Shown here in pieces: positions 7,774-35,453 of a stretch of 64,000 nucleotides of DNA. The position numbers were made by a program, and so were the translations under genes. Where the stretch lies: assembly GCA_963741065.1 (NCBI GenBank), contig CAVUGV010000018.1, positions 44,733-108,732 on the forward strand. Reading direction: 5' to 3'. This stretch comes from an uncultured Verrucomicrobiae bacterium. Lineage in GTDB: Bacteria > Verrucomicrobiota > Verrucomicrobiia > Chthoniobacterales > UBA10450. Numbering within the stretch: the stretch's first letter is position 1; every line of letters begins with the position of its first letter. The notes beneath the pieces are model-generated. The model saw only the letters and a list, made by a program, of their open reading frames with translations. It made no database searches and was not told where the DNA came from.

Positions 7774-7778
7774 TAAAC

Positions 7779-12310: not shown

Positions 12311-12312
12311 GA

Positions 12313-14303: not shown

Positions 14304-14883
14304 ATGAACTGGGCGAACCGAATTACTTTGGGCCGCCTCGCGCTGACAGTTCTTTTCGTGGTCGCGGTCAATTCTTCCTGGCAATACGCGCGCACTGCCG
14401 CGCTTGTGATTTTTCTGATCGCAGGCCTGACCGATTTTGTCGATGGAGAAATCGCCCGGCGCTACGGGATCATCACGAATTTTGGCAAATTGATGGATCC
14501 GCTCGTGGACAAAATCATGGTGGCGGCGGCGTTCATTTCGCTCGTGCCTCTTAAAGCCGTGCCGGCATGGGCAGCTACGACGGTGGTGGCGCGAGATTTT
14601 TTGATCACCGGACTGCGTCTGATGGCCAGCGCCAAAGGCCGGATTCTTCCAGCGGAAAGTCTCGGTAAACAGAAAACCTCGTGGCAAATCATCACGATTA
14701 TTTTCTTTCTGGCGCTTCTTTCAATAGTCGAACTGCGATACGCGAGTGAAACATCGACATGGTGGGTGCGGGCCTGGAACGAAGCCGGTCCCGTGCTGGT
14801 GTGGATTACCGTGGCACTGACGATTTATTCCGGGTCTTGGCTTTACCTGGCGAAATCGGGAATTGATTGCGCCAGATCAATAG
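14304..14883 (+). CDS. pgsA: CDP-diacylglycerol--glycerol-3-phosphate 3-phosphatidyltransferase (frame break near 14838; as-read ORF runs to 15008)
   Basis: MNWANRITLGR.., CDP-alcohol phosphotransferase motif DFVDGEIAR..G..G..DP..DK. After a 1-nt shift the C-terminus reads TWRNRELIAPDQ-stop (TAG 14881-14883), identical to the duplicate at 17170-17205. Confidence 0.85.
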
Positions 14884-14894
14884 CGGGCAACGGG
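14882..14894 (+). repeat. 13-nt copy of the tRNA-Gly(UCC) 3' end (att-like core)
   Basis: AGCGGGCAACGGG matches 35383-35395 and 16985-16997. Abuts the inferred pgsA stop. Confidence 0.65.
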
Positions 14895-14924
14895 CAGGCG
14901 GCGTTGATAACGTCGATCGTCGGT

Positions 14925-16864
14925 TTAGCGCGCAGCGCGCGCGCGAGCGGCGGCGAGGTTGGCGCGGATGCTTTCGCTGTCGGGCGCGAGGCCTTGCGCG
15001 ATCTCTAATTCGCGAACCGCGTCGGCGTAGCGGCCGAGGTTGAACAGCGAGATGCCGAGATTTTCGTGCGCGGAAACAAGCGCGGGCGCGAGCCGCAGCG
15101 CGGCTTCGTAGTGCGGCAGAGCGTCGGCAAAACGGCCGATGTGGGCGAGAGTGTTGGCCCAGTTGTATTGGGCATCAGGAAGATTCGGGTCCGCGCGCAC
15201 TGCGGACGCGTACTGCGCTAGCGCGTCGTCGGTGCGGCCGAAAATGGTGAGGATGTTGGCAGCGTTGTTATGGGCGAGGGCGAAATCGGGACGAAGGCGG
15301 ATCGCAGCTTCGTAGCACGCGAGCGCCTCGGCATTGCGGCCTTGCTCATGACGCACGTCGCCGAGCCCATAATGCGCGTCGGCGAGTGTGGGGAGTTGTG
15401 CAAGCGCGAGCTCGAATTGCACGGCGGCTTCGTCGAGCCGGCCCGCAGCGGCCAGCGCGACGGCGTAGTTGTGGCGCACCTTGGGGTAGTTCGGCAGCAA
15501 ACGCACCGCAGTCTCGTAGGCAGCGAGCGCTTCGGGGACACGCCCGGCGTCAGAGAGCGCGCTGGCCAGTTCGCCGAACGGGCGCGGGCTTTCGGGCCGC
15601 TTTGCGATGTTGTCCTGCCAAATCGAAATGGCAGAGCGGTAGTCGATGTTGCGCCGCGCGGTCATCGCGCCCAAGGCAATCGCGATTGCAACGAATACGA
15701 CCACGCTGCGACGGCCGAGGACATGCCACACGCCAACGACGATGGCGGCGATGATCGCGGCGAGCGGCAAATACATCCGGTGTTCCGCGACGGTTTGTGT
15801 GGCAAGTGGCAACACGCTCGAAGTCGGCGCGAGCAGCAGAAAAAACCACGCGCCGAGAAAACCCCACGGCGGGCACCGGGCGAGCGCGATGAGCGTGGCA
15901 CCGAAGAGCGCGAGCAGCAGGGCGGCTTGCAGCCAGACCTCAGCGAGGGAACTGGTTGTCGCTATGCCGTAATCGAGCACCAGCGGCGCGGGCCAGAGTG
16001 CGAGTCGAATGTAATGGATGAGCGCACCGCATTGGGTGAGCAGATAGTGCCACGGCGTGATGCCGAGACCGAAACCGGCCGTCGCACCTCGATTGCCCGC
16101 TTGCATCACGAGCCAACCGAGTAACAGCCATGTCGCCGCGAGTCCGGCGTAGAACCATGGCCGCCGACGCAGCGCTTCGCGAAACGTCCCGGCGACAAAA
16201 GTGCGGTCGTGCAGCAGCACGAGCAACGGCGCGGCATACACTACTTCTTTCGTTGCCATGCCGAGCAGGCACATGACAACGGCGAGCGCGTGCCAGCGCA
16301 TGGGCGTAGGCGACTCCGCACCTCGAATCGACGCGTATAGCGTCAATAACAGGCACAACCCGGCAAGCGACTCAGCGCGTTGTGCAATGTAAGTTACCGA
16401 CTCAGTCTGGAGGGGGTGTAACATCCAAAGCGCGGCCAGCGCGAACGCGAGCGGCGTCGCGTCGGCCGCGAATTTCGCAGCGAGCGGTCGGGACCGCAAC
16501 GTCCGGCGCACGACGCCGAACAGCGCCAGCGCAGCCAGCGCGTGGATCGCGAGGTTGAGCACGTGATAGCCGCGGACGTCGGCGCCCCCGACGGCCCAAT
16601 TGAGCGCGAAGGAAAAATTGACGAGCGGCCGGCCATTCGCAGGCTGACCGGTGTGGGGCGGCGCGAGTACCATCAGGGAGCGCGAGCGTGCGGATCGTCG
16701 CGTTTTCGCACGATGGCCGGAAGATCATCGAAAATAAACGGCCCGCGAAAACTATTGGCCCATGCCGCGAGTGCAGCGGCAGTAAGTAGCGCAGCAGCGA
16801 CGAAGATTCCGGCGCGGCTAGAGTTCGGGGCCGGACGCACGATTTTGCCCTTGGCACGCACCAT
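14925..16864 (-). CDS. TPR-repeat membrane protein with TMTC/PMT-like (GT-C fold) N-terminal domain; two frame breaks near 16675-16720
   Basis: N-terminus ..AWANSFRGPFIFDDLPAI.., then about 10 TM segments, then a C-terminal run of TPR units (A..Y..A....P....A..NLG). Visibly more GC-rich than its neighbours. Confidence 0.75.
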
Positions 16865-16983
16865 GAATGACCTTTGTTAGGACCTCTCCTATGAATCGAA
16901 CAGCGAACACTGGCAAAGACTGATTTTTCGTTCTGACTGTTGCCTCCTGGCAGGCGTCTTTTGCTTCGTGTTCATAGATGAAC

Positions 16984-16999
16984 GAGCGGGCAACGGGAA
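16984..16999 (+). repeat. 16-nt copy of the tRNA-Gly(UCC) 3' end plus one flanking nt (att-like core)
   Basis: GAGCGGGCAACGGGAA matches 35382-35397. Fused directly to the pgsA 3' fragment. Confidence 0.65.
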
Positions 17000-17205
17000 A
17001 ACTTCGTGGCAAATCATCACGATTATTTTCTTTCTGGCGTTCCCTGCAAGTGTGGAACTGCGTTACGCCAATGAAACATTTACATGGTGGTACGGCCCTG
17101 GAGCGAAGCCGGTCCCGTGCTGTATGGATTACGATAGTGCTGACGATTTACTCTGGGTTTGGCGTCACCTGGCGCAATCGCGAACTGATCGCGCCCGACC
17201 AATAG
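16996..17205 (+). pseudogene. displaced, decayed duplicate of the pgsA 3' end
   Basis: About 210 nt aligning to 14672-14883. The first 43 nt have 1 mismatch, then roughly 75-80% identity with small indels. Encodes KTSWQIITIIFFLA.. and ..VWITIVLTIYSGFGVTWRNRELIAPDQ-stop in two frames. Confidence 0.75.
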
Positions 17206-19477
17206 CGGCGATCGAGCGTAGCGCATCTGCTGAAGGCCGCGAGAAATGCGAGGGCAGCGAGAATTGAAATCCACTTTCCAAGTGTAAGCACGTCACGGGC
17301 GTACTCGACTCGTAAATGGTGATGACCCGCCAGCAGCGGCACCGCTCGCAAGATGTAATTTGCCGGCAGCAATTTGTAATTTGTCTGAACGCTCCCGGGC
17401 AGGGCGATAGCTCGCCACGATGGTGTGAATGCATCCGTGATCAGCAAGATGGCCGGTTGTTCGGCGTCAGCTTCAATTTCCAGCGCGTCAGTCGAAGCGG
17501 CAACAATTCGCGCCGTGCCGGCGCTTTCGGCTGGCAAGGGTTTCGGTTCCGGTTCGGATTCCAAAATTACTTCGTGCGCGGGGTCAAACGTAGTTGATCG
17601 CAACACGTCGAAGATTGCATTGCGGTCAGCCAGGACACGGTAGCTGGAAACAAGGTGGAGGTGCGACATGGCGGGCTCTGGTGCATCGCCGATTTCCAAT
17701 TCATTTCCGCGTTGCCCCAAAACATAGCGCAGACGCAGCATGGCGAAGAGCGGATCGTAGCGGACGAACTTCACATACGACATCGCCTGGTCGGGATCCC
17801 CGCCCTGGCTCCAAGTCATGAACTCGGCGTAGCGCCGCACCACGGTCGCTTCGTATCCCCACATGTCTTGCGCGCCGATCAACATCGCGCTGTTCGGGTT
17901 CGCGACATTCAGGATGCGGTAATCGCCGGCGTGCTCCTCGAGAAAGCGCTTTTCATCCGGATTCACGATGGTAGCGCTGTCAAACGTGGCGCGCGCGCCG
18001 TGTGCAAAAATAAACATTTCCGCCGCGCCCAAAGCGATCGCGCCAAACAGCGCACGCGGCTCTCGCCTCGCGAAGGCCAGGATGATGCCAAGGAGCGCGC
18101 AAACTCCAGCGGCAAAAAACAGCGACATCGCCGCGAGATGCTGCGATTGGGCAATAAATTCCGTGTCCGCGTAGAGTTGGGGGAACAGGTACGATTGGCC
18201 ACTGGCGCGACTTGCGTTCATTAGTCTCGGCCAGAACCCAGTGCTTGCGGTCCACCATCCGGCGACGCCCAAGGCCGCGGCACATGCGAAAACGGCAGCG
18301 ATAAATGGAGTCTCGATTCTCTTTTGTTGGAACAACCGCTCGAGTCCGCTGGCCGCGAGCAGACAAAGAAACAGCGACGCTAGAAAACTAAACTTCGAAA
18401 TACTGCGGAAGCGATCAAAGCCGGGCACCCAGGTATAAAGAAAATCGAACAACGGTGTATAGGCGCCGACGGCCAATAAAAATGCAACGCAAACAACAAT
18501 CAGCGGGGGCCATTTCGTTCCGCGTTCGCACCGAATCGTCGCGTAGATGGCGAACGCCAGGCCTACTACGCCGATGAAAACTGACGTTTCCCACAGATAC
18601 CAGCGTCCCCAGTATCTCGCTATGTGGCCAAAAAAATCCGGCGCGACCAACGTCGCAAAGTTCTCCGGCGGGAGCGAGAGCATGGAGGCAAATTGAAAAG
18701 GCAGCCTGAAGCCGCGCGTGGTTTCGCGCGTTGTCTGGATGGCGGGCAGCAATTGCACGGCTGCAAGGAGAGCGCCGGCTGGATAGATACTCAGCAACGC
18801 CGCTGCGACTCGCCAATTCCAGTGGCCGATCAATCGCAATGCAGCGTAGAGCCCGGCAATGATTGCAGTGTAAAAGACGTACTGCGGAAATCCTGCCAAC
18901 GTCTGCATGGCGATAGCAAACATCCCAAGCAACGACCAACCCCGAAAGCTTTCGGGGCGCTGAGTTCTGAAAACGGCGTCGATCGAACAAAAGATCAGCG
19001 GCGACCACGTCATTGCGCTCAACTGAGGCAAATGGCCGGCAAAAACGTGGGAAAAAACGCGCCGCAAAACATAACCAGCGTGCCGGCAAAGAAACTGGCC
19101 GGAGCGGAAAGCCCCCGTTGTTTCATCCAAAAAAACATGAACGCGCCAATAGCGAAAACATGCAGCGCCACCGTCCAGTTGATCGCGACAGGGGTGGACA
19201 AAACCAGGAAGAGCCAATTCGGCGGATACAGCAGCGCGCCTTGCATCCCACCGAAATACGGAGCGCCGCTAAAGATATGGGGGTTCCACAACGCGAGATT
19301 TCCTTTGGTCAATTCGCGGAAACCGAATTCGCGCCATGCGAAGTATTGCAAGAACATATCGCTGCCGGGATGTCCAAGCACGCGTGTGCCGCCGGCGAAC
19401 AAAAGATCGGCAAACATGGCCAGCGCCATTGCGAGCAAGAGGATCAGCGAAACGATCGTGGAACGCCGGCTTTCCAT
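17148..19477 (-). CDS. YfhO-family polytopic membrane protein (putative glycosyltransferase); one frame break near 19050
   Basis: N-terminal fragment ..LALWNPHIFSGAPYFGGMQGALLYPPNWLFL.. is YfhO-like and continues into the 689-aa ORF (many TM segments, large C-terminal domain). The last roughly 19 codons are antisense to the pgsA fragment. Confidence 0.7.
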
Positions 19478-19726
19478 CAGGCGGAAATGGTGACCGCCAG
19501 AACTGGAAAAATCAAAGCTCTCGTGAATTTAAAAACGAAATGGATCGCAACATGACTGACCCGGTGCGCCAGCGCGCATAGGCTACGGCGGGAGCGAACT
19601 CAAAATAAGGATTATGCCAGATAGGCAGGCCGTCGCCGCCGTCTCGTTGCCAGATTAAACAGGCCTTGTTCTGCTTCGCAGGATCACGCTAGAATCGCTC
19701 GCTGGTGGGAGGTAGCCAAGGTTTAC

Positions 19727-22700
19727 ATGCCTATGAACGCAAGCGCGCTAATCACCCGATCAGTTCAACTGGCTGTCCGGCCGTTTGTCCTTCTCTGGGC
19801 GTTTCTCAAGAAGATCGCTCTCGCGGTCTTCGGCAGATTGCACTGGAGCCCGCCGCACTGGCTTACACGAAGCCGCGCTGCCACGTCCGATTTTCATCGC
19901 GCGCATCCCCGCATCACGGCGTCCGGGATCGTCACGATTTTTCTGTTGTTGTGCGGCGCAGCCTGGACATTGCATTGGTATCAACATCGGCCCATCCCGC
20001 ACAAAGTTACGGCGACGATCGCCTCTCCGTCGGTTACCAAGCTCGAGAAAGAACTCAAATATCCGCCGCTCTTTGTCCGGTTCAGCGAACCCGCGGCGCG
20101 TCTGGAGGATTTGAAGAAACCATCGCTGTCAGGCGTCCAGGCTCGAACCAAAGATCAATGGCGCGTGGTCATGGAACTCGGACAAGGAACTGGCTTTTCG
20201 GCCAACGCAAGACTGGCCGGCCGATCAAAAATTCAAAATCACTTTCGACAAGAAATTTTTCCCGCCGCAGGTTTTGATGGAGCGCCTTGCCTACGAGTTC
20301 CAGACGCCACCATTCGACGTCGCCATCAAAGAACTTCAGCTCTACCAGGACCCGGCCAATCCGACGCAACGCCAAATCACGGCTACGCTTGAACTCACCC
20401 ATGCGGTTGAGCCCGGCGAGTTAGATCGGCATATCCAGCTGCAGATGATCGGCGGATCGAACGTTTTTCCGCCGTCAGAGTCGTCGCCGCATTTCACGAT
20501 CAGCTATGGGTTGCACAACCGTCTGGCGTATCTGCGCAGCTCGAACGTGACTCTGCCAGAGCGGGAGGATTTCATGAAGCTCTACCTGAGCAAAGGCGTG
20601 CGCACATCGCAGGGCGGCGCGCAAACACGGAACTCCGCAGAGGATAAGGTGCGCATTCCATCACAGGAAACCGCGTTTCAGATCGATTCGATCACCGGCA
20701 CGATCGCGCGAAATAAGAATGGCGAGCCGGAGCAGGTGCTGATCTTAAGTACAACGGCCGATATCAGCAGTAGCGAGCTGGCCAAGGCTGTTCAAATACG
20801 TCTGCTGCCGAAACGCAACGCCGAAACGACTGAAGAAAGCGAAACCGAAGCGACCGGAGAAACCGATTCGCAAAGTCCCGACTCGGAAACGGCTGAGCAA
20901 AGTAACCAAAGCAGCCAGACCGGCGCATCGGGAGACGAGGAGGCGGAGGAGGGGGAAGAACCCGATCAAGCCTCAAAATGGCAGAGTCCTGCCGAGGTGC
21001 CGGACGATGTCCTCGAGCAAGCCAAACAAATCGAATTCACGGTTGTGCCTCTCGGAAAAGGCGCAAGATCGGCAACACGCTTTTAAGATACAGATCGAAT
21101 CGGAGGGCGAGCTTTACGTCCGCGTCCCGAAAGGCGTGCGCGCGCCTGGCGATTACCGATTGGCGGAAGACTACAACGCAGTCGTCGCCGTGCCGCAGTT
21201 GCCGCGCGAAGTGCAGATCGAAGGTCAAGGCGGCTTGCTCGCGTTGAGCGGTGAACGGAAATTGTCCATCCGTTCACGCGCTCTGGCGGCGATCGAATTC
21301 GAAATCGCGCGTGTTGCTACCACTCAGATCAATCACCTCGTCAGCCAGACCCAGGGCAAATTCGAGGACCCTGAATTTCGCGATTCACATTTATTCAATC
21401 AGGAAAATATCTCGCGTATCGGAATCGAGCACCAACCGATTGCGGTCGAAAACAAATGGAAAGCGAATTATTCGGCGTTCGATTTCTCCGAGCATCTTCG
21501 CAAGCCAGCCGATGGCGGAAGCGAGCGCGGGCTTTTCTTTCTGACCGCGCGCGGCTGGGACCCGGCGAAAAAGAAACCAATCAACTCAGCTACGGACAGC
21601 AGATTTCTTCTCATCACGGACATCGGAATTTTAACGAAGAAAAACACCGATGGCAGCAGCGACGTCTTTTTGATGTCGATCAAAAATGGCCAGCCGCTCG
21701 GCGGCGCGACGGTTGACATCCTGGGCAAGAACGGCGTGCCGATCCAGACGGCCAAAACGGCGGCGGATGGTCATTGCACTTTTCCATCCGTTGAAAAATC
21801 CGAGCGCGAAAAATTGCCGGTGGCGTTCGTGGCGCGCAATGGCGACGACGTCGCGTTCATGCCGTTCGCGCGCGAAGACCGCGTCCTGAATTTTTCGCGC
21901 TTTGAAATTGAAGGGGCGGAGAACATCGCCGCCGGAAGGTCTCGACGCGTTCGTTTTCACCGAGCGCGGTGTGTATCGGCCCGGGGACGAAATTCACATC
22001 GGGCTGGTGGTGAAGCAGCGAAGCTGGGGCGGCAATCTCAAAGGCTTGCCCATTGAAACCGAAGTGCATCGATGCGCGCGACCTGCGGGTCCAGACTAAG
22101 AAGCTCACCTTGCCGGAGACCGGGTTCACCGAACTGAGCTATCAAACCGCCAACGAATCGCCGACCGGCCTTTACACCGTCAATGTGTACCTGATCAAAA
22201 ATAACAAGCGCTCGAGTTTGCTCGGTTCCGCCACAGCTCAGGTGAAGGAATTTCTGCCCGACCGCATGAAAATCGAGACGCGGCTGTCCAAAGCTGCCCC
22301 GCGCGGCTGGATTCATCCCAGCGAAATGCATGCTTCCGTTGCCTTGGCCAACCTTTATGGCACGCCCGCAACCGATCGGCGTGTGACCGGCAAACTCGAA
22401 CTCGCACCGGCGGCATTTTCATTTCCGGAATTTCGCGACTTCACTTTTTTCGACCCGCTCTTTGACGAAAACAAAACTCGACAAGAGCAAACGGTCGATC
22501 TCGGCGAAACGAAAACCGACAGCGAAGGCCACGCCGATTTTGACCTGCAACTGGAACGGTTCGCCGACGCGACGTACGCGATGCGATTTATCGCTGAAGG
22601 CTTCGAAGGCGAAGGCGGAAGGAGCGTCATGGGCGACGTCGGCGCGCTGGTCTCTGCTCTGCCTTACGTGATCGGCTACAAAGCCGACGGCGACCTTCGT

Positions 22701-25655: not shown

Positions 25656-25674
25656 CACTTGGAGCAACGCGAAA

Positions 25675-28046
25675 ATGAAAAACCGTGTCATCCCGAACGC
25701 AGTGAGGGACCTCTCAAGAGGACATGGGTTACACAAATTACTGTGTGTGATCCGCGCTTCGTGGGTGATGTCCCTCGCGTTGCTCGGGATGACCGTGTGG
25801 TTCGCCTGGCTGCTACTCCCGAAGCCGCCGTTGCTTGAGGGCATCTCATTTTCCCAATGCGTTCGTGATCGCAACGGAAAACTGCTGCGCGTCACGCTGA
25901 GCGGTGACCAGAAATTCCGCATCTGGACACCGCTGCGCGAGATTTCAACCGCATTGATCGATGCGACGCTGCGATTTGAAGACAAATATTACCGGCATCA
26001 CCCCGGAGTTAACCCGCTGGCATTACTGCGTTCGGCTTTGAATCTGCGACCAGGTCACGCACATAACGGAGCCTCCACCATTACGATGCAACTGGCTCGG
26101 TTGCGTTATCATCTGCGCACCCGCACCCTCAGCGGAAAGTTTGTTCAAATTGTTCGCGCGCTTGAACTGGAGCGGCATTACTCGAAGGACTGAAATTCTT
26201 GAAGCCTACCTCAATCTCGCGCCCTACGGGCGGAACATCGAAGGCGTGGGCGCGGCCAGTCAGATTTATTTTGGCAAGACTGCCGCGCATTTAACCAGGC
26301 CTGAATCAATTTCGCTGAGCGTCATTCCGCAAAGCCCGACCCGACGCGCGTTGTTTGTCGATCAGGATAACGGCGCGCTCAACGCCGCGTTATCGCGATT
26401 CGGCAGGCGAGACGCACGCCTGCCCTACAGCCAGGATGACTATGCTACTCTGGCGCGCGATTTTCGACCGCGCGCTTTAAGCGAACACAAACTTCTCGCC
26501 CCGCACTTTGTTCAGCAGGTGCTGGCGGCCGAGAAAGGCCGCGACGAAATCGTCACCACGCTCGATCTGGCAAAGCAGCAATTAATCGAGCGGCGGATCG
26601 CCGATTATGTTCGAACAAATCGCGGTCGCGGAATTCAGAATGCTGCCGCCCTGCTGGTCGATGCGCGCAACATGGATGTGCTGGCACAGGTCGGCTCGGC
26701 CGATTTCTTCAACGCTGACATACAAGGACAAGTGGACGGAACACGCGCGCCACGTTCACCCGGTTCCACTCTGAAACCGTTCGTCTATGCGCTCGCCCTC
26801 GAGCAGGGATTGATTCATCCATTGTCGATCCTGTCGGATGCGCCCCACAGTTTCGCGGACTACAATCCGGAAAATTTCGATCGCGAATTCGTCGGCCCCA
26901 TCCGCGCCAGTGACGCGCTCGCACGCAGTCGCAATCTTCCAGCGGTCGAACTCGCATCCCAGTTGCGTCATCCCACACTGTATGAATTCCTCCGGGGCGC
27001 GGGCATTAAATTGCCGCGCTCGGAACCGCTTTATGGATTGGCGCTTCCGCTGGGCGGGGCCGAAGTCACAATGGAAGACTTGGTGCGACTTTACGCTGCG
27101 CTGGCCAATAACGGAGAACTGCGTCCGCTTCGCCGCACATCGCGCGAGCTAATCGCGGCGCGGGGCCACTCGATCATGATGCCGGAAGCGGCGTTCCTGA
27201 CCCTGGAGATGCTTAACTTGCCACGACCCGAAATGGGCCGCGCTTATGCGGACCATGCCGCGCCGGTTTTTTGGAAAACGGGGACCTCCCATGGTTTTCG
27301 CGACGCATGGTCAATCGCCGTTTTCAATCACTATGTGCTCGCGGTTTGGATCGGAAATTTTGACGGCCGCGCCAATGGAACTTTTGTCGGGCGAATCGCC
27401 GCCGCTCCTCTCTTGTTTCAAATCATCGATAGTTTGCGCATGAGTTGGCCGGAACCGAACCAGCCGCATCTTCCGCCTCCGGGCGCAAATTTGAAACGTG
27501 TCTCTTTTTGCGCCGTCTCGGGCGATTTACCTGGGCCGTATTGCACTCAACAAGTCGAGGGATGGTTTATTCCCGGAATTTCTCCGATCAAACCCTGCGA
27601 TGTGCATCAGGAAGTGCTCGTCGATGCCATGAGCGGACTCCGCGTGGCGCAGGGATGACGGAACGCGCCAGCTCCGCCGTGAAGTCTATGAATTTTGGCC
27701 GACGGAGTTGTTGTCGATCTTTCGCCGGGCTGGAGTGCCGAGAAAATTGCCGCCGCCATTTTTGCCCGGAACGACTGCGGAATTCGTCGCGCGCAGTGGA
27801 AATGCGCCGCGAATCGTTTCGCCACCTGATGGGCAAAAGATTTTGCCGGCACCGGCCGGCGCAATACCCTTGCAAGCCAGGGCGGACGCTGATGTGCGCG
27901 AGATTTACTGGTTCGCGGGCAAAACCTTTATCGGCAGAGCCCCGCCGCAGGAAGTAATTTCATGGAAGGCGTCGGCAGGCCGATACGAATTGATCGCCTT
28001 GGACGACCATGGCCGCTCGGGCTCATCCGCGATTACGGTGCAATAG
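25675..28046 (+). CDS. pbpC: penicillin-binding protein 1C (transglycosylase/transpeptidase); two frame breaks (about 26150-26190, about 27655-27710); likely start ATG 25768
   Basis: GT51 motifs RFEDKYYRHHPGVNP, GASTITMQLARL, ILEAYLNLAPYG. Transpeptidase motifs STLKP, KTGTS. C-terminal PbpC-type domain (..IYWFAGKTFIG..). TM helix MSLALLGMTVWFAWLLL. Confidence 0.85.
25687..25793. repeat. family-B inverted-repeat element, copy B2, overlapping the pbpC start
   Basis: gtcatcccgaacgcagtgagggacctc ... gatgtccctcgcgttgctcgggatgac. The right arm contains ATG 25768 and the first TM codons of PbpC. Confidence 0.8.
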
Positions 28047-28171
28047 GAACACACATTTCAACGTCACCACTAACCTGAATACTGATCTCAAATTGAAGGA
28101 AGAAATCGGCCACATGATGGACTCGGTGCACCGGATGTCAGAGATAGAAGTCGAAAAGATAGAGAAGGAAT

Positions 28172-28627
28172 GTGAGAACATCGGAACTGAATTCATTCGC
28201 GTCTGACCGGGTGATTCGGAGGTGCGCTTGGTTAGCCGGAATTTTGGTTCTGTTGTTCTTTCCAAACGCTTTTGCACAGAGCGAGTTTTCGACATTTTGG
28301 AAAAAATTTGGATCCGCGGTAATCACTGGCGATAAAGCAACAGTTGCGGAGATGGCAAAATTCCCACTGTCGATGCCTGCCTTTCAAAAGGCCGTAAAGA
28401 ACAGGGCCGATTTTTTGCGCCGTTATAATGAAATTTTTAGAGGCGAGGCCAATGCCGCCCAATGTTTTGCAACCGCCGAACCGCGAAAAGAATCCGACCG
28501 GCGGTGTGAGATCTATTGTCCTTTTAAAGAAACTCCGGGCGACCGCGAGAACGCACCAATTCGCTTCGAGTTCGAATTGACCAAAAGCGGCTGGAAATTT
28601 GCCGGTCTCGACAACATTAATGAATGA
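28172..28627 (+). CDS. hypothetical secreted protein
   Basis: 151-aa ORF with a signal-like segment WLAGILVLLFFPNAFAQ. No family recognised. Start uncertain. Confidence 0.45.
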   Translation: MRTSELNSFASDRVIRRCAWLAGILVLLFFPNAFAQSEFSTFWKKFGSAVITGDKATVAEMAKFPLSMPAFQKAVKNRADFLRRYNEIFRGEANAAQCFATAEPRKESDRRCEIYCPFKETPGDRENAPIRFEFELTKSGWKFAGLDNINE

Positions 28628-28746
28628 CGCGCATTAACGCCAAAGATTCAGACACGAATTTGAAACTCGCTCGCTCCCGCGCTGCTCCGGGCTCGATCCG
28701 CTTCGGAACGATCCGCATTTCCAGAACGAGGTGTAAAAAACTGCGA

Positions 28747-29055
28747 ATGGCAAAATCCAAAAAGAACAACAACAAAGCGAAGCTCAACCTGACGGTGCGT
28801 GAGGAGCAACGAAACAAACTGGAGCAAATGGCATCTTTAGAGAGCCGTTCCGTCTCCAATCTTATCGAGGTTATGGCCGATGAACGCTGGGAGCGATTGG
28901 TCGAGCAGCAGGGCGTTGCTTACGCTAAAACCGTCGCGGAGGCGATGAACCTCAAACTCGAAATGGACAATCCAGCAGACCGCGAGAAATTGCGCCGAGC
29001 AGTTCTCGAGCTTGTCGCCGGGAGAAAAATGCCAAAGCAAAAACGGAATGGTTGA
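28747..29055 (+). CDS. ribbon-helix-helix (CopG/Arc-like) DNA-binding protein
   Basis: From ATG 28747: MAKSKKNNNKAKLNLTVREEQRNKLEQMASLESRSVSNLIEVM.., a basic tail plus beta-strand and two helices typical of RHH. Paralog at 34584-34900. Confidence 0.6.
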   Translation: MAKSKKNNNKAKLNLTVREEQRNKLEQMASLESRSVSNLIEVMADERWERLVEQQGVAYAKTVAEAMNLKLEMDNPADREKLRRAVLELVAGRKMPKQKRNG

Positions 29056-29084
29056 AATTCTCTCGTTCTCTTTCTGGCAAGCAT

Positions 29085-29272
29085 TTGCAGTTCGATTCAT
29101 CTCCGATGCGCTGCCATTCGGTCGCCTTTGGTATGCCGAACAAAACGCAGTCAGCAACGCAATCGACTACGCGAAGTTTCGCAGTCGGTCACACGATGCT
29201 GTGATTCGCGTTTACGATGAGGCGGGGAATGTGATTGAAAAGCACGAGCACAAGAGCGATTTCAAACAGTGG
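29085..29272 (+). pseudogene. 5'-truncated copy (a) of a small conserved hypothetical gene family (..ISDALPFGRLWY..HDAVIRVYD.AGNVIE.HEH..DFK.W)
   Basis: ISDALPFGRLWYAEQNAVSNAIDYAKFRSRSHDAVIRVYDEAGNVIEKHEHKSDFKQW. Lacks the N-terminal roughly 17 codons seen at 31472-31555. The stop is replaced by TCA. Confidence 0.5.
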
Positions 29273-29883
29273 TCAGGCGGAATTATCGCTTACTGTTCGG
29301 GCCTCTGGCCGGAGCCATTCTTGCTTTTGGCATAGCTGGCTTGGCCCTGCTGATTCCGGGGTATAGCCACGTGCGCCAGACGGTCAGCGAGATTGGAGAA
29401 ATTGGCTCGCCAGCCAGAGTTCCCTTCGCCATCATGTTATTTTGCGTTGCAGCCTGCATCTTGGTGTTCGCCTCGGCTGTTCGCGATATGTCAGTTGCGG
29501 CCCATCACTCCCGATTGGCCGCATACGTAATTGGGTTCATGGCGTTGCCGGCTGCAGGGATAGGACTGTTTGCCTACCCGCATCCACTTCATAACCTTTT
29601 CGGAATGTCGGAATTGATCGGATACCAAGCGCCACTCGTCTTGGCGCTCACATGGAGACGCGGCCCACGAGCGAAAACTCTCGTCGTGCTTTCATGGATA
29701 CTGTTTGCGCTCATATGGGGCGCAATCGCCTTGAACTTAAGCGCATTTGCCGCTCCAGTTTGGGCTTACGTGAAGCCTGTTCATGGCCTTGCACAAAGAG
29801 CACTCTTCGCCGCCTGGTTCGGCTGGTGTGCGGTAGTAGGTATATTACTGTTCCAGCGAAAGTGGCAGATCTCCGCCCAGTGA
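29269..29883 (+). CDS. DUF998-like integral membrane protein
   Basis: 204-aa ORF with six hydrophobic segments and an IPGYSHVRQTVSEIGE motif that I associate with DUF998. Confidence 0.55.
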   Translation: MVRRNYRLLFGPLAGAILAFGIAGLALLIPGYSHVRQTVSEIGEIGSPARVPFAIMLFCVAACILVFASAVRDMSVAAHHSRLAAYVIGFMALPAAGIGLFAYPHPLHNLFGMSELIGYQAPLVLALTWRRGPRAKTLVVLSWILFALIWGAIALNLSAFAAPVWAYVKPVHGLAQRALFAAWFGWCAVVGILLFQRKWQISAQ

Positions 29884-29994
29884 GATTACGGCAAGTTTCG
29901 CAGCCACTCACATGATGCAGTGATTCGGGTTTACGATTCAGCGGGCAACGTGATCGAGACGCACGAGCACGCGGGCGATTTCAAAGAGTGGTGA
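29884..29994 (+). pseudogene. 3' fragment (b) of the same small gene family
   Basis: DYGKFRSHSHDAVIRVYDSAGNVIETHEHAGDFKEW-stop. 108 nt parallel to 29165-29272. Begins immediately after the DUF998 stop codon. Confidence 0.55.
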
Positions 29995-30062
29995 GCCAAT
30001 CGTGTTTGGCATTTTGAGCCAAACAAAAAGTCCGCCCCCGCGGCCACGTGAGCAGAAAAATT

Positions 30063-30677
30063 TCATATTTGGATGGCCTTCAGTTTGGGGAGGCGAAGCG
30101 CCGCGAACTGCACGTGACATTCATTTGCGTTTTCGCTCTTTCTCTTTGCAGGGCAGTCGTGGCAGAGCAGCCTCTTCCACCAACTGCTGTTGTTGGATTT
30201 AGAAGTGAGGCCGGCGTAGCGAAAGATCGTTCGCCGGCTGCGAATATCGACGCAGATTGTGCGCTCATAGGTTTGAAAGAAATGCCGATTACGCCCGTGG
30301 ACGCAAAGCACCACGCGCTCGAGGTCGCGCGAGGGGAAATCAGCGGTCTTGCCGTGGAGCGAGCCGCCCTCATACATGACTTCGAGCGCTGTAAGGACCC
30401 TGCCCTCCTCGACATCGTCGAGTTTGACAGATTCATCTGGGAACTGGACTGGAATCGCCGTCATGTTGAAATCAACAAAAAGTGCTTAGCTGTTGCCCAC
30501 GGCATCTTGTCGCGGCAGTGCTTCAATTACGAAACACCGTTTCGTGCGGCCACGATCGCGAATTCCTTCAATTACCTCCCTGCTGATAACAACATTGCCG
30601 TCGGTGGCGTGAGCGATTATCCACGGACGTAGCATGTCGGTGAATTTCTCTGGTTTTTTCTTTCGTTTTTCGTTCAT
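30063..30677 (-). CDS. hypothetical protein interrupted by one in-frame TAA (30486-30488)
   Basis: ORFs 30486-30677 and 30063-30464 share a frame. MNEKRKKKPEKF.. looks like a genuine basic N-terminus. No family recognised. A 194-aa ORF on the opposite strand competes. Confidence 0.35.
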
Positions 30678-30721
30678 GATTTTTGTTCGTTCGTTTAACT
30701 TTTACTTTCTAAATTTGTCAT

Positions 30722-30901
30722 CTACGCGTTTTTGAAATCGACAAAAGGTGTCGCAGTCAAGAGCAGTTCCATCAGGCGCGCCTCGTAAGAATCACAGACG
30801 GGGGACTCGCCATTTGGCTGGACCCATTCGGGATGTTGAATCCGCAGATCGTCGTGAATCTGGTGCCGCAGCTCGGCGTAGGTGTGGATTTGGTCAGACA
30901 T
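30722..30901 (-). CDS. small hypothetical protein (59 aa)
   Basis: MSDQIHTYAELRHQIHDDLRIQHPEWVQPNGESPVCDSYEARLMELLL.. No family recognised. Confidence 0.35.
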   Translation of the reverse strand: MSDQIHTYAELRHQIHDDLRIQHPEWVQPNGESPVCDSYEARLMELLLTATPFVDFKNA

Positions 30902-30924
30902 GGCAATTTGCTTTGGTGAAAGGT

Positions 30925-31179
30925 TCAAGTGTGGCGCGGAACGGTTCCCACAGAGGGCTTGGCGGAATCGTCGACGAGCGTTCGTGCCGTGAGTGTGCGC
31001 CACCGCCGAGTGAGGCTACTCCAAAAGGGAGCTCGCACCTGCCTCCGATGTGCGGGACGCCGGGCCAACTCGATCACTTTGTGGCGCTGGCGTTGCAGCA
31101 AAACGGCCAGCAGTCCGCTTTGCGTAAGGGTCAGGTTTGATTTTGTCATAACGTAGTCTTTCCTGTTTTTCATAAGCAT
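30925..31179 (-). CDS. hypothetical protein, start uncertain
   Basis: Open frame with candidate starts at 31179 and 31149 (MTKSNLTLTQSGLLAVLLQRQRHKVIEL..). Weak evidence only. Confidence 0.3.
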   Translation of the reverse strand: MLMKNRKDYVMTKSNLTLTQSGLLAVLLQRQRHKVIELARRPAHRRQVRAPFWSSLTRRWRTLTARTLVDDSAKPSVGTVPRHT

Positions 31180-31471
31180 CTTCTTATTTGAGGTTGACTG
31201 CTCCAAATCCGCGCGGAACGAGGAACCTTCTTCGGGAGGCGCTTTGAAGAGCGGCCTCGCTTCGGAAGCCTCGGGGCTCCAGGTGAATCTGGAGATCGCG
31301 TTAGGCGGTGTCTCAGCGAAGGTTAAGCCTCTCAACCGGTCTTTTAGTCCGGCCAAAAGTACGTTGGGACGTCGGGTGACGTAATCAAAGCAAGTCTAGC
31401 AGTAGTCTCGAGACGCGCATATTGGACTTTAGTCCTATGTCTTTCTGGGGGCATCAAAGCTGTTTGTGAGC

Positions 31472-31555
31472 ATGGAGACTTACGAAGTCCGCCCTCGCAA
31501 AGATGATCGCGGCGTCGATCTGATTTCCGATGCGCTCCCATTCGGTCGGCTGTGG
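31472..31555 (+). pseudogene. 5' fragment (c) of the small gene family
   Basis: METYEVRPRKDDRGVDLISDALPFGRLW. Family similarity then ends abruptly (LHHPGVS..). Confidence 0.5.
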
Positions 31556-31682
31556 CTTCACCATCCGGGCGTATCGATTATGGTTTTCACATCTGGGAGA
31601 TTATCGAGGGGTCTAGCGCCCAGTTGGGGAACCAAACCTACGTGTCCGTCCGAAGTAACTAAGAGCCCCGCGCGTCGGACAC

Positions 31683-32048
31683 ATGGCACTGCGTATCCTT
31701 TTTGTCGAAGATCATAACTACAGCCGCCAAACAGTTTCGCGGCTACTAAGGCATTTCCATTATGACGTCGTCGCTGCGCCGGACTACCGAACCGCCAGTG
31801 CGCTTCTAGACAAATGGCAGTTCGATGTCCTCTTGAGCGACATTCGTTTGCCAGATGGGGATGGCTGCAATCTCGTAACGGTAGCTAAGTCTAAGCAACC
31901 GCTCGTCGCGATTGCGCTCACTGGTCTTGGAACTGGGGAGGATGAAGAGCGTGGTCTTTCGTGCGGCTTTGATCACTATTTCATTAAACCGTTAGATTTT
32001 TACCGACTGCGCGCGGTTCTCAGGGGAATCGCTTCGCGACATAGTTAG
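31683..32048 (+). CDS. orphan single-domain response regulator (CheY-like receiver)
   Basis: 121 aa. ILFVEDH.., phospho-acceptor context VLLSDIRLPDGDG, ..ALTG.., ..FIKP.. No kinase gene nearby. Confidence 0.8.
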   Translation: MALRILFVEDHNYSRQTVSRLLRHFHYDVVAAPDYRTASALLDKWQFDVLLSDIRLPDGDGCNLVTVAKSKQPLVAIALTGLGTGEDEERGLSCGFDHYFIKPLDFYRLRAVLRGIASRHS

Positions 32049-32229
32049 TGAAGCGGCGTCCGGTTGGTAAAACGCAAGAAACAGCCTTTCGGGGTTGTTC
32101 CCGGAGGGATGGCGTTAAAGCGCGAATATTGCCAGTCGAATGCGCGCAATGCCGCTTGGTGCCATTCGCTATCCAAGGCTGAGATCCAGTCCAAAGTTCC
32201 ATCCGGCTTTCTTGAGCTTGTCAGGGAAC

Positions 32230-32252
32230 AGCGGGCAACGGGAATCGAACCC
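32230..32252 (+). repeat. 23-nt direct copy of the tRNA-Gly(UCC) 3' end (att site of an integrated remnant)
   Basis: AGCGGGCAACGGGAATCGAACCC is identical to 35383-35405, covering the T-arm through the discriminator of the tRNA on the minus strand. Confidence 0.75.
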
Positions 32253-32404
32253 AATTTGAAGTCTTCGCGGCTTTGCGCAATTCCGCCACAAACATGCGCT
32301 AGGCTGCGTGTTAGAGGGGAAAATGCAAATCAGCGCGTTTGCACGATTCGCGCAGAATTACGCAGTTCGAGTGTCCGAATTTGTCCGAAAAGATTTAATG
32401 ATCC

Positions 32405-32785
32405 TTACCAATCTGCCGTGGCGGACAGCGATCTCGCGCCGTATTGGGTGGTGACCGTTGGCGACACTGGGGACACTGGGGGACAAGTGGTGACATTTCT
32501 TACAGAGCGCAAATCCGCCGGCAAAATGCTCCATTTGTAGCGGTAGTTCCATTGATAGAGCGTGCTTCGGGCGATTCCGGTACGCTTAGCGGCTTCAGTG
32601 TAGCCAATCTCGCCGACCAGCATGCGAACTTTCTCCCTGTCGACGGGCAACTTTTGTCTGCCTATCTGGCTGAGCATGGAAGATAGCATACCACAAACGG
32701 CTCTCCGAGTTGGATACAAGCACGCTTCCAATGCAGAGATAGATGAAGGGCTGCACTCTCTTACACGGGATACATATGGTACCAA
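32405..32785 (-). CDS. HTH protein (AlpA/excisionase-like or IS-derived), boundaries uncertain
   Basis: ..VRMLVGEIGYTEAAKRTGIARSTLYQWNYRY.. is a helix-turn-helix of the Xis/AlpA or transposase-N type. The C-terminal part looks non-coding (GGGGACACT tandem). Confidence 0.35.
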   Translation of the reverse strand: MVPYVSRVRECSPSSISALEACLYPTRRAVCGMLSSMLSQIGRQKLPVDREKVRMLVGEIGYTEAAKRTGIARSTLYQWNYRYKWSILPADLRSVRNVTTCPPVSPVSPTVTTQYGARSLSATADW

Positions 32786-33078
32786 GCCGAAGTCACTTAG
32801 TGCTTATTTCGCTTAACGCAGCCCCTTCCTCAATTCGATGTAACGGGCGAACGATCTGGATTGCCGACGCACATCGCGGCGACGGAAGGCGTTTCGTTGT
32901 GCACGCAGAGGAATTGTTGACCGCATTTTGGAACTCGAATCAGGAGTTCGATCCGGCAGAACACGCAGAGAACTGTGGAGCCCGTAAAATAACGCTCGAC
33001 AACTGTCGCGGATCGAGTAAAAGCCTCGTCGATTTCGTCATCCGACAGTTTCAACGTATTTTCGGCACGGCTGAATAA
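32743..33078 (+). CDS. hypothetical protein
   Basis: ..GRTIWIADAHRGDGRRFVVHAEELLTAF.. resembles a small conserved hypothetical I have seen in soil phyla. Start uncertain. Confidence 0.35.
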   Translation: MKGCTLLHGIHMVPSRSHLVLISLNAAPSSIRCNGRTIWIADAHRGDGRRFVVHAEELLTAFWNSNQEFDPAEHAENCGARKITLDNCRGSSKSLVDFVIRQFQRIFGTAE

Positions 33079-33241
33079 GCCGCAGGGGGCTGGACCTTCG
33101 CTGAGACACCGTTTAGCGCAATCTCCCCAGATCCAACTGGATCCCCGAGTCAGCCGAAGTGAGGTCACTGCTCCAAAGCGACCTCGGGAGGACGGTTGCT
33201 GATTCCACACGGAACTGGATTCCAGTCAGCCTCAACAAAAA

Positions 33242-34581
33242 ATGAAAAAACAGGCTAACCCGTCCATTAAGGCGCACCTGCTTTGGAGCGCATTGATCCT
33301 GCTCGCTCTTCTCGCGGTCTGCGCGATTCCATTCACGCTGGCGCAATCCAGCAGTCGCGGGACCAGCAACCAAAGCGTAGCCCAGGCGGCGGCCAAGCCG
33401 AATCTGTCCGCGATCGCGGAGCTGCCGCCTTTGACCAAGTCGATTTCTACGCGGGCGGTTTTAAATCCCGGCGCAGGCGGACCGCAGGCAGCACCGGCTG
33501 TTGATGGAGCGGTTAGGGCCCCCACACTGTCAAGCGGAGCCACCGGCGCGAATCCGGTCGTCCGTACGGGTGAGGTATGTCAGTTCCACGTGCTCATCGT
33601 GTATGCGGATCAACTAGGCCCGCCTACTCAGCTTCAGTCGGAAATCCAGGCCGAACCTAATGTGATCTCGGTTGACCTGTTTGCTGCAACAATCGGCACG
33701 CCCACTCTGGCTCAGCTTCAGCAATACCAGATCGTCGTGCCTTTCAGCGATTCTCCGTTTGCCGACGGAGATACGCTGGGTAACAACCTGGCCGACTACG
33801 TGGATGGCGGAGGCGTGGTCGTCCAGTACGGCTTTAGCTTCTTCGGCCCTGGGCAGGTGCAGGCCCGGCCGGGCGGCGATGGAACCATCTCGGGGTACGG
33901 TATTACTGGCCGATGGCTAAGTGGCAACTACAACCCGTACACCTACTCGACGAACGTGCAATACAATGCATTCTCGCTGGGCACGCATAACGCGGGGCAC
34001 CCGTTGATGGCTGGTGTCACCATGCTCAACAGCAACTATGCAAACATCATAACGCTTGCCGTTGGAGCGACAGAAGTAGCGCAGAACAACCTCGGCAACT
34101 CACTCGTGGCGTACCGGCCGGTGAGCGGCGGGCACACCACTGTGGGCGTCACAGCCTATGTCGGGTTCGCTGCGACGCAGAGCGGAGACTGGGGAAAGGT
34201 GATAGTCAATGCTGGCAACTGGCTGGCTAATTGCCAGGGAGGAAGTCCGACTCCAACGCCGACGGCAACTCACACTCCGACAGCTACCCCAACAGCTACT
34301 CACACGCCCACACCTATTCCAACAGCTACGTTCACGCCCACGCCGACTCCGACGGGAACTCACCCTCCGACAGCAACACCAACAGCTACTCACACGCCCA
34401 CGCCTACTCCAACAACTACAGCCACGCTACAGCTACAGCTACGCATACACCGACAGCTACGCCAACGGCAACGTCAACAGTTACAGCAACGGCGACGCCG
34501 ACACAAACGCCGAGACCAACCACGACACCGAGACAAATCCCGACGCCGAGGCTACGTCCGACACCGTCGCCTCGTCCGTAG
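33242..34581 (+). CDS. secreted protein with C-terminal Pro/Thr-rich tandem repeats (frame break near 34420)
   Basis: Signal peptide [35 protein letters not shown], a globular domain of about 300 aa, then (T/A)-H-T-P-T-(A/P)-T-P-T repeats continuing in a second frame to the stop at 34581. Confidence 0.6.
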
Positions 34582-34627
34582 CGCTAAATCCAAATAGAAC
34601 AAGAACAAAGCGAAGCTCAACCTGACG

Positions 34628-34900
34628 GTGCGTGAGGAGCAACGGAACAAACTGGAACAAATGGCGTCTTTAGAGAACCGTTCCGTCTCCAATCTCATCG
34701 AGGTTATGGCCGATGAACGCTGGGTCCGATTGGCCGATCCCGCAGGCAAGTTGTCAGAGGCACAAAAACAGGAGCTGGCAGAAACGATACTGGAAGCGCA
34801 CAAGGCACTTATTAAGGCGGACGGTAAAAATATTCGCCTCTGTGGGCCCGTTGTCGATTCCTTAAGCCAAGACCCTCATCGCGAGACAACTTCGAAATAA
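34628..34900 (+). CDS. RHH-domain paralog with damaged 5' end
   Basis: ..LNLTVREEQRNKLEQMASLENRSVSNLIEVMADERW.. 34584-34732 is roughly 90% identical by eye to 28751-28899. The ATG is lost and a TAG lies in the N-terminal tail. Only a GTG at 34628 remains. Confidence 0.5.
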   Translation: MREEQRNKLEQMASLENRSVSNLIEVMADERWVRLADPAGKLSEAQKQELAETILEAHKALIKADGKNIRLCGPVVDSLSQDPHRETTSK

Positions 34901-35049
34901 GCTGGTCTTTGCATGATGTGTCCGCGAGTCGACTAGATCAACCGCACGATTTGGCAACGACCAGGGGGTGAGCGTGTCGCGCTGAAACACGATAAAGACC
35001 CCCCGTAACCAATCGCGCAGGTAATGTTGTTAAAGACTTAGCAACCGTT

Positions 35050-35289
35050 TTAACTGGTGATCCTCCCGGAGAACGTGCGTTTGATCTCATGGACCTTGCG
35101 CAGTTCAGCGTCAGAGAATGGCGCAATGCGGTTTTGGGTCACCAGGATCTGCAGTTCATGCCGCGTGTAAATGCTCCACGACCCGGCGCCGGCTTCGACT
35201 AGGGCTTCTTTGGTGGCCTCGTCCTCGCAGAAGAAGATGATCTCGTCCAGGGCTTGAGAATGGACCACGACGAAGGGCAGATCGAGCAA
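35050..35289 (-). CDS. small hypothetical protein (79 aa)
   Basis: MLDLPFVVVHSQALDEIIFFCEDEATKEALVEAGAGSWSIYTRHELQILV.. No family recognised. Confidence 0.4.
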   Translation of the reverse strand: MLDLPFVVVHSQALDEIIFFCEDEATKEALVEAGAGSWSIYTRHELQILVTQNRIAPFSDAELRKVHEIKRTFSGRITS

Positions 35290-35382
35290 GGACAGGAGAG
35301 GTCGTTTGTATGCCCGGAGGGTATCGGCAAAGTCTGGCGAGCAACGTCAAAACAAGTTTGGTTCACCAATGAAATAGTAATG

Positions 35383-35453
35383 AGCGGGCAACGGGAATCG
35401 AACCCGCATGGCCAGCTTGGAAGGCTGGAACTTTACCATTAAGCTATGCCCGC
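35383..35453 (-). tRNA. tRNA-Gly (anticodon UCC), CCA not encoded
   Basis: Reverse complement GCGGGCATAGCTTAATGGTAAAGTTCCAGCCTTCCAAGCTGGCCATGCGGGTTCGATTCCCGTTGCCCGCT. 7-bp acceptor GCGGGCA/TGCCCGC, anticodon loop CTTCCAA, T-loop TTCGATT, 4-nt variable loop, discriminator U. Confidence 0.9.

Follow-up and report, generated by a model that had tools for sequence, protein, structure and literature searches.

Integrative islands that target tRNA genes reportedly enter through tyrosine integrases that cross over in the T-loop/acceptor region. In streptococci, integrative and conjugative or mobilizable elements (ICEs and IMEs) accrete with integrase-less cis-mobilizable elements (CIMEs) into tandem arrays between direct attachment (att) repeats. 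In the tycheposon islands of Prochlorococcus, repeated integration displaces older elements outward, partial tRNAs are scattered about, and intact elements make up only the smaller part of the DNA (Hackl et al., bioRxiv 10.1101/2020.12.28.424599). Capture of host flanks by imprecise excision was proposed for the same islands (bioRxiv 10.1101/2020.12.28.424599), without direct demonstration. Here we describe a comparable locus in a 64-kb window, by which we mean the whole stretch of DNA that was analyzed. With a probability that we put at about 0.85, positions 14882-35382 of this window, between the lipid-synthesis gene pgsA and a tRNA-Gly(UCC) gene, are a tRNA-seeded, tandemly accreted genomic island of Candidatus Udaeobacter. 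This bacterium is among the most abundant in soil, is uncultured, and is described as having a reduced genome. Homologs of PgsA with 90-97% identity come from soil metagenomes and from metagenome-assembled genomes labelled Verrucomicrobia or Candidatus Udaeobacter. Gene exchange in Udaeobacter is poorly known; a full-text literature search for "Udaeobacter" with "genomic island" returned just two papers, and both terms are absent from their titles and abstracts.

The window contains a single tRNA, the tRNA-Gly(UCC), placed on the minus strand at 35382-35453 by ARAGORN and at 35383-35453 by Rfam. Read on the plus strand, its 3′ end is the 23-mer AGCGGGCAACGGGAATCGAACCC, which occurs exactly twice, at 32230-32252 and 35383-35405 (expectation from shuffled sequence, 0.00). 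Shorter exact matches are GAGCGGGCAACGGGAA at 16984-16999, whose first G is the base flanking the tRNA, so that 15 nt (from 16985) are tRNA derived, and the 13-nt AGCGGGCAACGGG at 14882-14894. Every copy is on the plus strand and starts at the complement of the tRNA discriminator base. No partial copy reaches the 5′ half of the tRNA, and within the 64-kb window no copy lies outside 14.8-35.4 kb. With one mismatch permitted, there are five matches, against 0.17 expected, and a count of five was reached in 0 of 100 shuffles. A previous reading of the window, made from the sequence only, had placed the tRNA and its same-orientation copies of 23, 16, and 13 nt exactly here and had judged chance matches very unlikely, as the shuffles (0-0.17 expected) bear out.

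If the copies are scars of insertion at the tRNA, relatives should include unoccupied sites, and that reading had predicted a much shorter interval in them, possibly with pgsA beside the tRNA. Scanning one genome per species in GTDB, we obtained 80 Udaeobacter-type loci; in all, 95 pgsA loci were fetched, and the window insert was compared with all of them by Blast. (Individual loci are designated by L numbers.) In L012-L016, whose PgsA is 94% identical to that of the window, pgsA runs into the intact tRNA with a 2-nt overlap (...GATCAATAGCGGGCAACGGGAATCGAACCCGCATGG...), and the tRNA is followed by fabF and an IMPDH-like gene, the same as in the window. The distance from pgsA to the tRNA is −2 or −1 nt, which is the empty site, in 11 of the 80 species loci; it is 24 nt in one, 461-9,484 nt in 38, and more than 10 kb in 8, while the remaining loci end at contig ends. 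In the window, it is 20,498 nt. A 20-kb interval conserved as core synteny, the finding that would have spoken against insertion, is thus contradicted by the fetched loci. Partial copies of the tRNA end, 10-28 nt long, are frequent at the end of pgsA and within the inserts of many loci. The cargo of the inserts varies among loci and includes TPR, Kelch, peptidase M14, glycosyltransferase, transglycosylase, and kinase families; in a Pfam summary of 121 representative open reading frames (ORFs) from the inserts, TPR and Kelch dominate among the matches listed.

The empty site also defines the left border of the island. PgsA homologs have 192 amino acids and the C terminus APDQ. In the window, the last 16 codons of pgsA are out of frame because of a 1-nt insertion near 14836-14840; the +1 frame ends in GLGFTWRNRELIAPDQ, followed by TAG at 14881-14883, and the last 2 nt of this stop codon are therefore the first 2 nt of the 13-mer. 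Because of this overlap with the target, every insertion must leave pgsA with a stop codon. We also observed that the stop codon is TGA in L001-L005 (CAATGAGCGGG; L001 10570-10583) and TAG in the window (CAATAGCGGG; 14875-14890). At most occupied sites, the tRNA or core comes after AATG, and the extra G in L001-L005 matches the G of this tetranucleotide. These observations suggest that element and target are identical for 3-4 nt past the end of the tRNA and that each insertion must recreate the pgsA stop.

The features of the island, from the pgsA border to the tRNA, are as follows.

14304-14883, plus strand: pgsA (CDP-diacylglycerol-glycerol-3-phosphate 3-phosphatidyltransferase), the chromosomal left border (Pfam PF01066, homologs, and empty-site alignment).
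14882-14894, plus strand: core copy 1, the outer att scar of the TPR cassette; 13 nt exact, once the 15-nt AGCGGGCAACGGGAA, with the substitution A14C.
14895-16983, minus strand: TPR cassette, a single gene for a TMTC-like membrane and TPR protein, 645 amino acids if intact, frameshifted in the window (Pfam TPR families).
16984-16999, plus strand: core copy 2, the flanking G and 15 nt of the tRNA 3′ end, of which the terminal GGGAA meets pgsA-internal sequence in a hybrid joint.
17000-17210, plus strand: pgsA′, a 211-bp pseudogene fragment of pgsA, from codons K-T-S-W-Q to the stop (repeat alignment).
17206-17210, plus strand: AGCGG, a 5-nt core remnant at the end of pgsA′ (after CAAT), the outer scar of the YfhO unit.
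17148-19553, minus strand: unit with a YfhO-like membrane protein, frameshifted in the window (weak Pfam match).
19727-28046, plus strand: alpha-2-macroglobulin (a2M)-like gene in at least six ORF pieces and a PbpC-like transglycosylase/transpeptidase (ORFs, collinear with L022 and L023).
28172-29995, plus strand: small-gene stretch, 51.6% G+C, including a secreted 151-amino-acid ORF.
28624-29055: RHH/Arc-like gene in the small-gene stretch.
29012-29335: small ORF 'ISDALPFGRLW...VIRVYDxAGNVIExHEH'.
29269-29883: DUF998 gene.
29884-29995: partial second copy of the small ORF, with an 11-nt core-like match.
29996-32229: cassette C, unknown ORFs and the next two items.
31466-31717: third, partial copy of the small ORF, in cassette C.
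31683-32048: lone response-regulator receiver gene, in cassette C.
32230-32391, plus strand: core copy 3 (23 nt exact, 32230-32252) and an end module of ~140 nt, to ~32391, the outer end of cassette D.
32253-35382: cassette D, the newest insert, which also carries a 111-amino-acid ORF.
32405-32785, minus strand: ORF with a weak HTH match, in cassette D.
33242-34597: secreted Pro/Thr-repeat protein of 451 amino acids, in cassette D.
34628-34900: RHH/Arc-like gene in cassette D.
35050-35289, minus strand: 79-amino-acid ORF in cassette D.
35383-35453, minus strand: the integration target, an intact tRNA-Gly(UCC) gene; fabF and an IMPDH-like gene come next, as they do in all relatives.

We named a2M and PbpC from the ORF translations and from the Transgly family seen among the insert ORFs, not from individual scans. 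Many conserved genes between 9400 and 37000 are split into overlapping ORFs in different frames and are intact in relatives. They include the DnaE2-like gene, gnd, YfhO, a2M (at least six pieces), PbpC, fabF, and the C terminus of pgsA (examples at 11679-12258, 12306-13037, 17148-19477, 19727-25655, 25675-28046, and 35956-36900). Similar splits are seen in L001, which is from another assembly ('contig_' names). The pattern looks like long-read indel error rather than mass pseudogenization. Upstream of the island, a conserved cluster at 4278-11637 (LptF/G, a helicase, an ImuB-like gene [IMS_C], and a DnaE2-like error-prone polymerase) is collinear with relatives.

The units of the island are found separately in relatives. 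L079 carries the TPR cassette alone: window 14885-16999 matches L079 10581-12693 at 93%, and the match runs into the intact tRNA. In L055, the TPR cassette is followed by the core and the conserved module; elements that carry this module are here called module-type elements. The YfhO unit lies directly beside the real pgsA, without TPR, in L019 and L028; L072 matches the YfhO segment of these two loci at lower identity (82-91%), and L047, which also has no TPR cassette, has a 485-nt insert and a degenerate core between pgsA and YfhO. Among the fetched loci, the a2M-PbpC pair is present only in L022 and L023, where it is collinear with the window, and L022 has a copy of the core and module (16820-16971) ahead of it. 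A homolog search with the TPR protein returned matches of 85-96% in Udaeobacter and, after these, at most 73%; no donor lineage could be named.

The closest long relative, L001, has flanks that are 93-96% identical to those of the window, and is collinear with it up to 19664; from there to the tRNA, L001 has 2.5 kb of DNA unrelated to the window. L001 17821-17865 matches window 32208-32252 at 97.8%, and the last 22 nt of cassette C thus abut the intact tRNA in L001. Because the 22 nt to the left of the 23-mer adjoin an intact tRNA there, cassette D entered the tRNA last. At least three att copies in direct orientation therefore bound units that occur separately elsewhere, as expected of an accreted array; an att copy at every unit boundary is not present, as there is none at 19553 or upstream of a2M in the window. 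As in tRNA-targeted islands, the interval is bordered on one side by an intact tRNA and on the opposite side by a direct repeat of the tRNA 3′ end, and relatives have the site unoccupied. The sequence-only reading had divided the interval into three blocks. Its GC-rich, TMTC-like block holds, but the middle block is a composite of the pgsA fragment, the YfhO unit, the a2M-PbpC unit, small genes, and a further cassette, with a breakpoint at 19553 that carries no tRNA repeat. Its central claim of serial insertion at the tRNA 3′ end is supported by the empty site, the blocks found alone, the L001 joint, and integrases in relatives.

Comparison of the joints across genomes indicates how the partial copies arose. 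The left joint of the TPR cassette was originally CAAT, the 15-nt core AGCGGGCAACGGGAA, and GGCGGCG; this core is whole in L055 and L003, and the window, L001, and L079 each have a different single substitution in it. The right joint reads ...GTTCATAGGTGAATG followed by AGCGGGCAACGGGAA, and the sequence beyond it varies by genome: in L079 the tRNA continues, in L055 the module comes next, and there is pgsA-internal sequence (AACTTCGTGGCAAATC...) in the window, L001, L009, L022, and L023. The 16-nt copy is not the eroded scar that it had been taken for, because its 15 tRNA bases are joined to pgsA DNA. Likewise, one element type has a core that is natively 23 nt long, as identical 23-nt copies occur in five other places (L024, L049, L067, and, twice, L069). 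The decay from 23 to 16 to 13 nt, earlier ascribed to erosion with age, thus mainly reflects native core lengths and one recombination joint, and only a single substitution is erosion.

The fragment pgsA′ (17000-17210) aligns with 14672-14886 of the window at 84-91% identity, with three 1-nt indels. It ends in CAAT, AGCGG, and CGATC, which is identical to the real pgsA-YfhO joint in L019. Compared with other pgsA′ copies, it is 92% identical to those of L001, L009, L010, and L022 and 87.5% identical to that of L023; compared with real pgsA genes, it is 89.4% identical to that of L028, 88.7% to that of L047, and 87.5% to that of L019, versus 83.7% for the window's own. The pgsA-internal site at which the fragment begins, AACAGAA/AAC (..GGTAAACAGAAAACC..), matches the core at ~8 of 15 positions. 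We infer that pgsA′ is a host flank captured by imprecise excision, which fits its closeness to pgsA of the genomes in which pgsA adjoins YfhO.

Integrases of the expected kind are found at this tRNA in relatives. At the pgsA locus of L026, a tyrosine integrase (PF00589, E = 1.4e−20) and a 27-nt core lie 113 nt apart; soil metagenomes contain more than 1,285 members of this integrase family. A box II regular expression for tyrosine recombinases, applied to insert ORFs, missed this integrase and was superseded by a hidden Markov model (HMM). In L158, the order is ExbBD, IMPDH-like gene (94.6% identical to that of the window), fabF (91.9%), tRNA-Gly, 84 nt, and integrase; this integrase occupies the same chromosomal site as the window tRNA, and in L159 and L160 the integrase likewise adjoins the tRNA. 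A complete element of 5.9 kb, L099, has direct repeats of tRNA-Gly(UCC) that are 30 nt long. L096 and L097 carry the integrase, an HTH_17 protein, a DnaB/AAA_25 helicase, and heavy-metal ATPase cargo, and the helicase is absent from the window and L026. No relatives of the integrase were found in IMG/VR viral contigs with either single-protein or alignment queries, and there is therefore no support for a phage origin.

The ends of the elements are conserved as well. The module of ~140 nt that follows the 23-nt core ends in the direct repeat GTCCGAA-N4-GTCCGAA and is 73-93% conserved among 14 copies, of which 13 are spread over 12 GTDB loci and the other is that of the window. In the window, core and module begin with AGCGGGCAACGGGAATCGAACCCAATTTGAAG... 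and the right end of cassette D reads ...CACCAATGAAATAGTAATG. The left flanks of the module copies are mutually unrelated, and two of them are the end of pgsA itself. The tRNA-proximal ends form conserved families, one of which the right end of the TPR cassette resembles. Given these conserved ends, the integrase-less cassettes are trimmed elements and not random DNA. The core-module joint is also present in 57 metagenome contigs, and in two of these (L112 and L120), 77 nt separate the joint from a same-family integrase on its left, an arrangement expected if a module-type element was inserted beside an older, integrase-bearing one. As a structured RNA, the module was rejected: nothing in Rfam matches it, and when 13 copies were folded with RNAalifold, the energy was weak and the covariation term positive (unfavorable) on both strands. 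We suggest that it is protein-binding or regulatory DNA of the element. A 277-amino-acid HTH protein beside the L024 module is not conserved in cassette D.

We propose the following history for the locus. In the ancestor, pgsA and tRNA-Gly(UCC) would have been convergent, with the pgsA stop overlapping the tRNA 3′ end by 2 nt. Small integrative elements with tRNA 3′-end cores (15, 23, or 27-30 nt) would recombine with the tRNA through a tyrosine integrase, and each insertion would rebuild the tRNA, leave a partial copy on the pgsA side, and displace earlier inserts outward. From oldest to newest, the insertions would probably have been the TPR cassette, the pgsA′ and YfhO unit, the a2M-PbpC and small-gene material, cassette C, and cassette D. 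The second of these may have come from a donor in which a YfhO-bearing unit lay beside pgsA. In a manner similar to specialized transduction, this unit would have excised through the pgsA-internal site, not its true outer site, taken 211 bp of pgsA along, and integrated via its 15-nt core at a tRNA already flanked by the TPR cassette. Later, integrase genes would have been lost from every window cassette, and deletions and homologous exchange would have reworked the interior.

A broader and more tentative hypothesis, which we consider possible but would not favor, is that the pgsA/tRNA-Gly locus serves as a cassette platform. Integrase-less units with conserved ends (the 23-nt core and ~140-nt module on one side and conserved ends of 45-75 nt on the other) would be moved in trans by a tRNA-Gly-specific tyrosine integrase borne by a minority of elements, and imprecise excision would feed ordinary chromosomal genes, such as YfhO and a2M-PbpC, into the mobile pool. 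The cassettes of the window had been called fossil islands. "Fossil" is unproven, as the conserved ends are kept and an integrase from outside could still move the cassettes.

Several observations weigh against accretion in this genome. Only two stretches deviate from the 56% background in G+C content, the TPR cassette (64.0%) and 28.0-32.2 kb (51.6-53.4%); the YfhO unit, a2M-PbpC, and cassette D are at background. The 3.1-kb islet that had been described as lower in GC has, in fact, the background value (cassette D, 55.9%), and the low-GC stretch is the one at 28.0-32.2 kb. No recombinase was detected in the window, in line with the earlier remark that no integrase survives, either with an integrase-family HMM (built from 120 family homologs and run in six frames over the whole 64 kb) or with Pfam and PHROGs on the larger ORFs within 28.1-35.3 kb, where the domains found were of the RHH/Arc-like, weak HTH, DUF998, and receiver kinds. 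For this lineage, integration is accordingly an inference. Most cassettes in relatives have no integrase either, and among the 95 fetched pgsA loci only L026 has one within 10 kb of pgsA. We found no hidden core copy at 19553, the YfhO/a2M boundary, or at the start of a2M in the window; since such internal breakpoints have no tRNA repeats, deletion and homologous exchange must also have shaped the island. The margin by which pgsA′ appears imported is modest (21-25 versus 32 mismatches in ~215 nt), and the window sequence contains indel errors. Finally, the composite of TPR, pgsA′, and YfhO is common to L001, L009, L010, L022, and L023 at 92-95% identity; the greater part of the array was therefore not built in the window genome but came to it as a block, by inheritance or exchange.

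This last point raises the possibility that the composite island was acquired or exchanged in one piece, together with its scars, when its flanks (pgsA/moaE/gnd on one side and tRNA/fabF on the other) underwent homologous recombination, with the insertions having happened in other genomes. The similarity of the flanks to L001, the collinearity of the composite in the five relatives, the lack of an integrase in the window, and the replacement of the whole segment between 19664 and the tRNA among close strains are all in its favor. Yet the scars and empty sites still require site-specific insertion somewhere, which makes block transfer a complement rather than an alternative, and cassette D lies exactly between a 23-nt core and the intact tRNA, as direct insertion predicts. 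We consider it rather unlikely that the array reached this lineage ready-made in this way. Somewhat less likely still is that pgsA′ and its 16-nt joint were made in place, without a circular carrier, by illegitimate recombination or slippage between ..GGGAA and the ..CAGAA of pgsA or by homology-facilitated illegitimate recombination of linear donor DNA. The joint does have GAA/AA microhomology, the pgsA-internal site resembles the core, and no circular intermediate was observed. However, in no composite-bearing genome is the resident pgsA as close to pgsA′ as are the pgsA genes of L028, L047, and L019, its AGCGG joint to YfhO is the real pgsA-YfhO joint of L019, and a simple tandem duplication would have doubled the TPR gene, which is single copy. 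An origin of the short copies by chance, from an unrelated dispersed repeat, or through decay of duplicated tRNA genes is highly improbable and is refuted by the joints compared across relatives. One 11-nt match, at 29940, is truly a coding coincidence that recurs in L025, but the other copies exceed what shuffles produce, all begin at the tRNA 3′ terminus, stand at cassette boundaries that correspond to joints with an intact tRNA in relatives, and stop short of the 5′ half of the only tRNA present.

The interior of the island has further repeats. The small ORF family (...RGVDLISDALPFGRLWY...SHDAVIRVYDEAGNVIEKHEHKSDFKQW) has one full and two partial copies in the window and related pieces in the inserts of L006, L018, L025, and L069; it has no match in Pfam or PHROGs. 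These repeats may drive rearrangements within the island. The extra 11-nt exact match at 29940-29950 falls in the codons ...VYDSAGNVIETHEH of the partial copy at 29884-29995, and the same 11-mer recurs in L025 within 12635-12746, a stretch that matches window 29884-29995. It was rejected as a fifth scar on account of its position in coding sequence and its recurrence in L025, and the split of the small ORF into N- and C-terminal parts is not at this match; we take it to be a codon coincidence. An isolated 11-nt match to the T-loop region of the tRNA at 61374-61384 (GAATCGAACCC), with no tRNA or further similarity nearby, is probably due to chance. The starts of both RHH/Arc-like genes are covered by a 155-nt direct repeat (28750-28904 and 34583-34737; 93% identical). 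The same gene is also present near the tRNA-proximal end of a module-type element in L049, and it may be a conserved regulatory gene of these elements. A 39-nt inverted repeat (31291-31329 and 33088-33126; 85% complementary) flanks the core and module, with similar segments in L034 and L073. Tandem 12/30-nt repeats at 34247-34532 encode the Pro/Thr-rich tail (TPTPTATH...) of the 451-amino-acid protein.

Islands of this kind are well known; what is new here is the host group, the target over the pgsA stop, the integrase family and end modules, and the pgsA′ scar. The locus resembles integron arrays in that mostly single-gene, promoter-poor cassettes, parted by a recurring recombination site, occupy one chromosomal platform. 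Unlike in integrons, the recurring site is a tRNA 3′ end and not attC, entry is at the tRNA end, and no IntI/attI adjoins it; no integrase was found in the window, and the module has no supported hairpin structure. We therefore regard this as a resemblance only. As with CIMEs, the integrase-less members keep the element ends and could, by analogy, be moved in trans by a related integrase, but no conjugation or mobilization genes are present among the window ORFs scanned. With tRNA-targeted islands in general, the locus shares the borders of intact tRNA and 3′-end repeat, the tRNA rebuilt by the element's copy, the empty sites, and an integrase beside the tRNA (in L158). It differs from them in that the window cassettes have no integrase, the units are very small (2-3 kb, often with one cargo gene), and the lipid-synthesis gene whose stop codon (TAG, or TGA in L001) lies partly within the target is essential.

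The closest likeness, one of layout, is to the tycheposon islands, which are also seeded by tRNAs, have their older material pushed outward by later insertions, and are scattered with partial tRNAs. The host, in contrast, is a soil member of the Verrucomicrobiota, and a replication module was seen in only one related element, L096 (DnaB/AAA_25). If the platform hypothesis is true, soils would have their own equivalent of the tycheposon system, in an uncultured bacterium that is abundant worldwide. In either case, it is a defined hotspot, empty in some species and holding from 0.5 to more than 20 kb of varied cargo in others, that can be tracked across genomes, and its integrase family and conserved ends make it possible to trace strain-level gene flux through metagenomic data. 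Flank capture as proposed for the tycheposon islands seems to have left a direct scar here in the form of the pgsA′ fragment, and the fusion of this fragment to the tRNA core is unusually clean sequence evidence for the capture of a host flank by a small integrative element.

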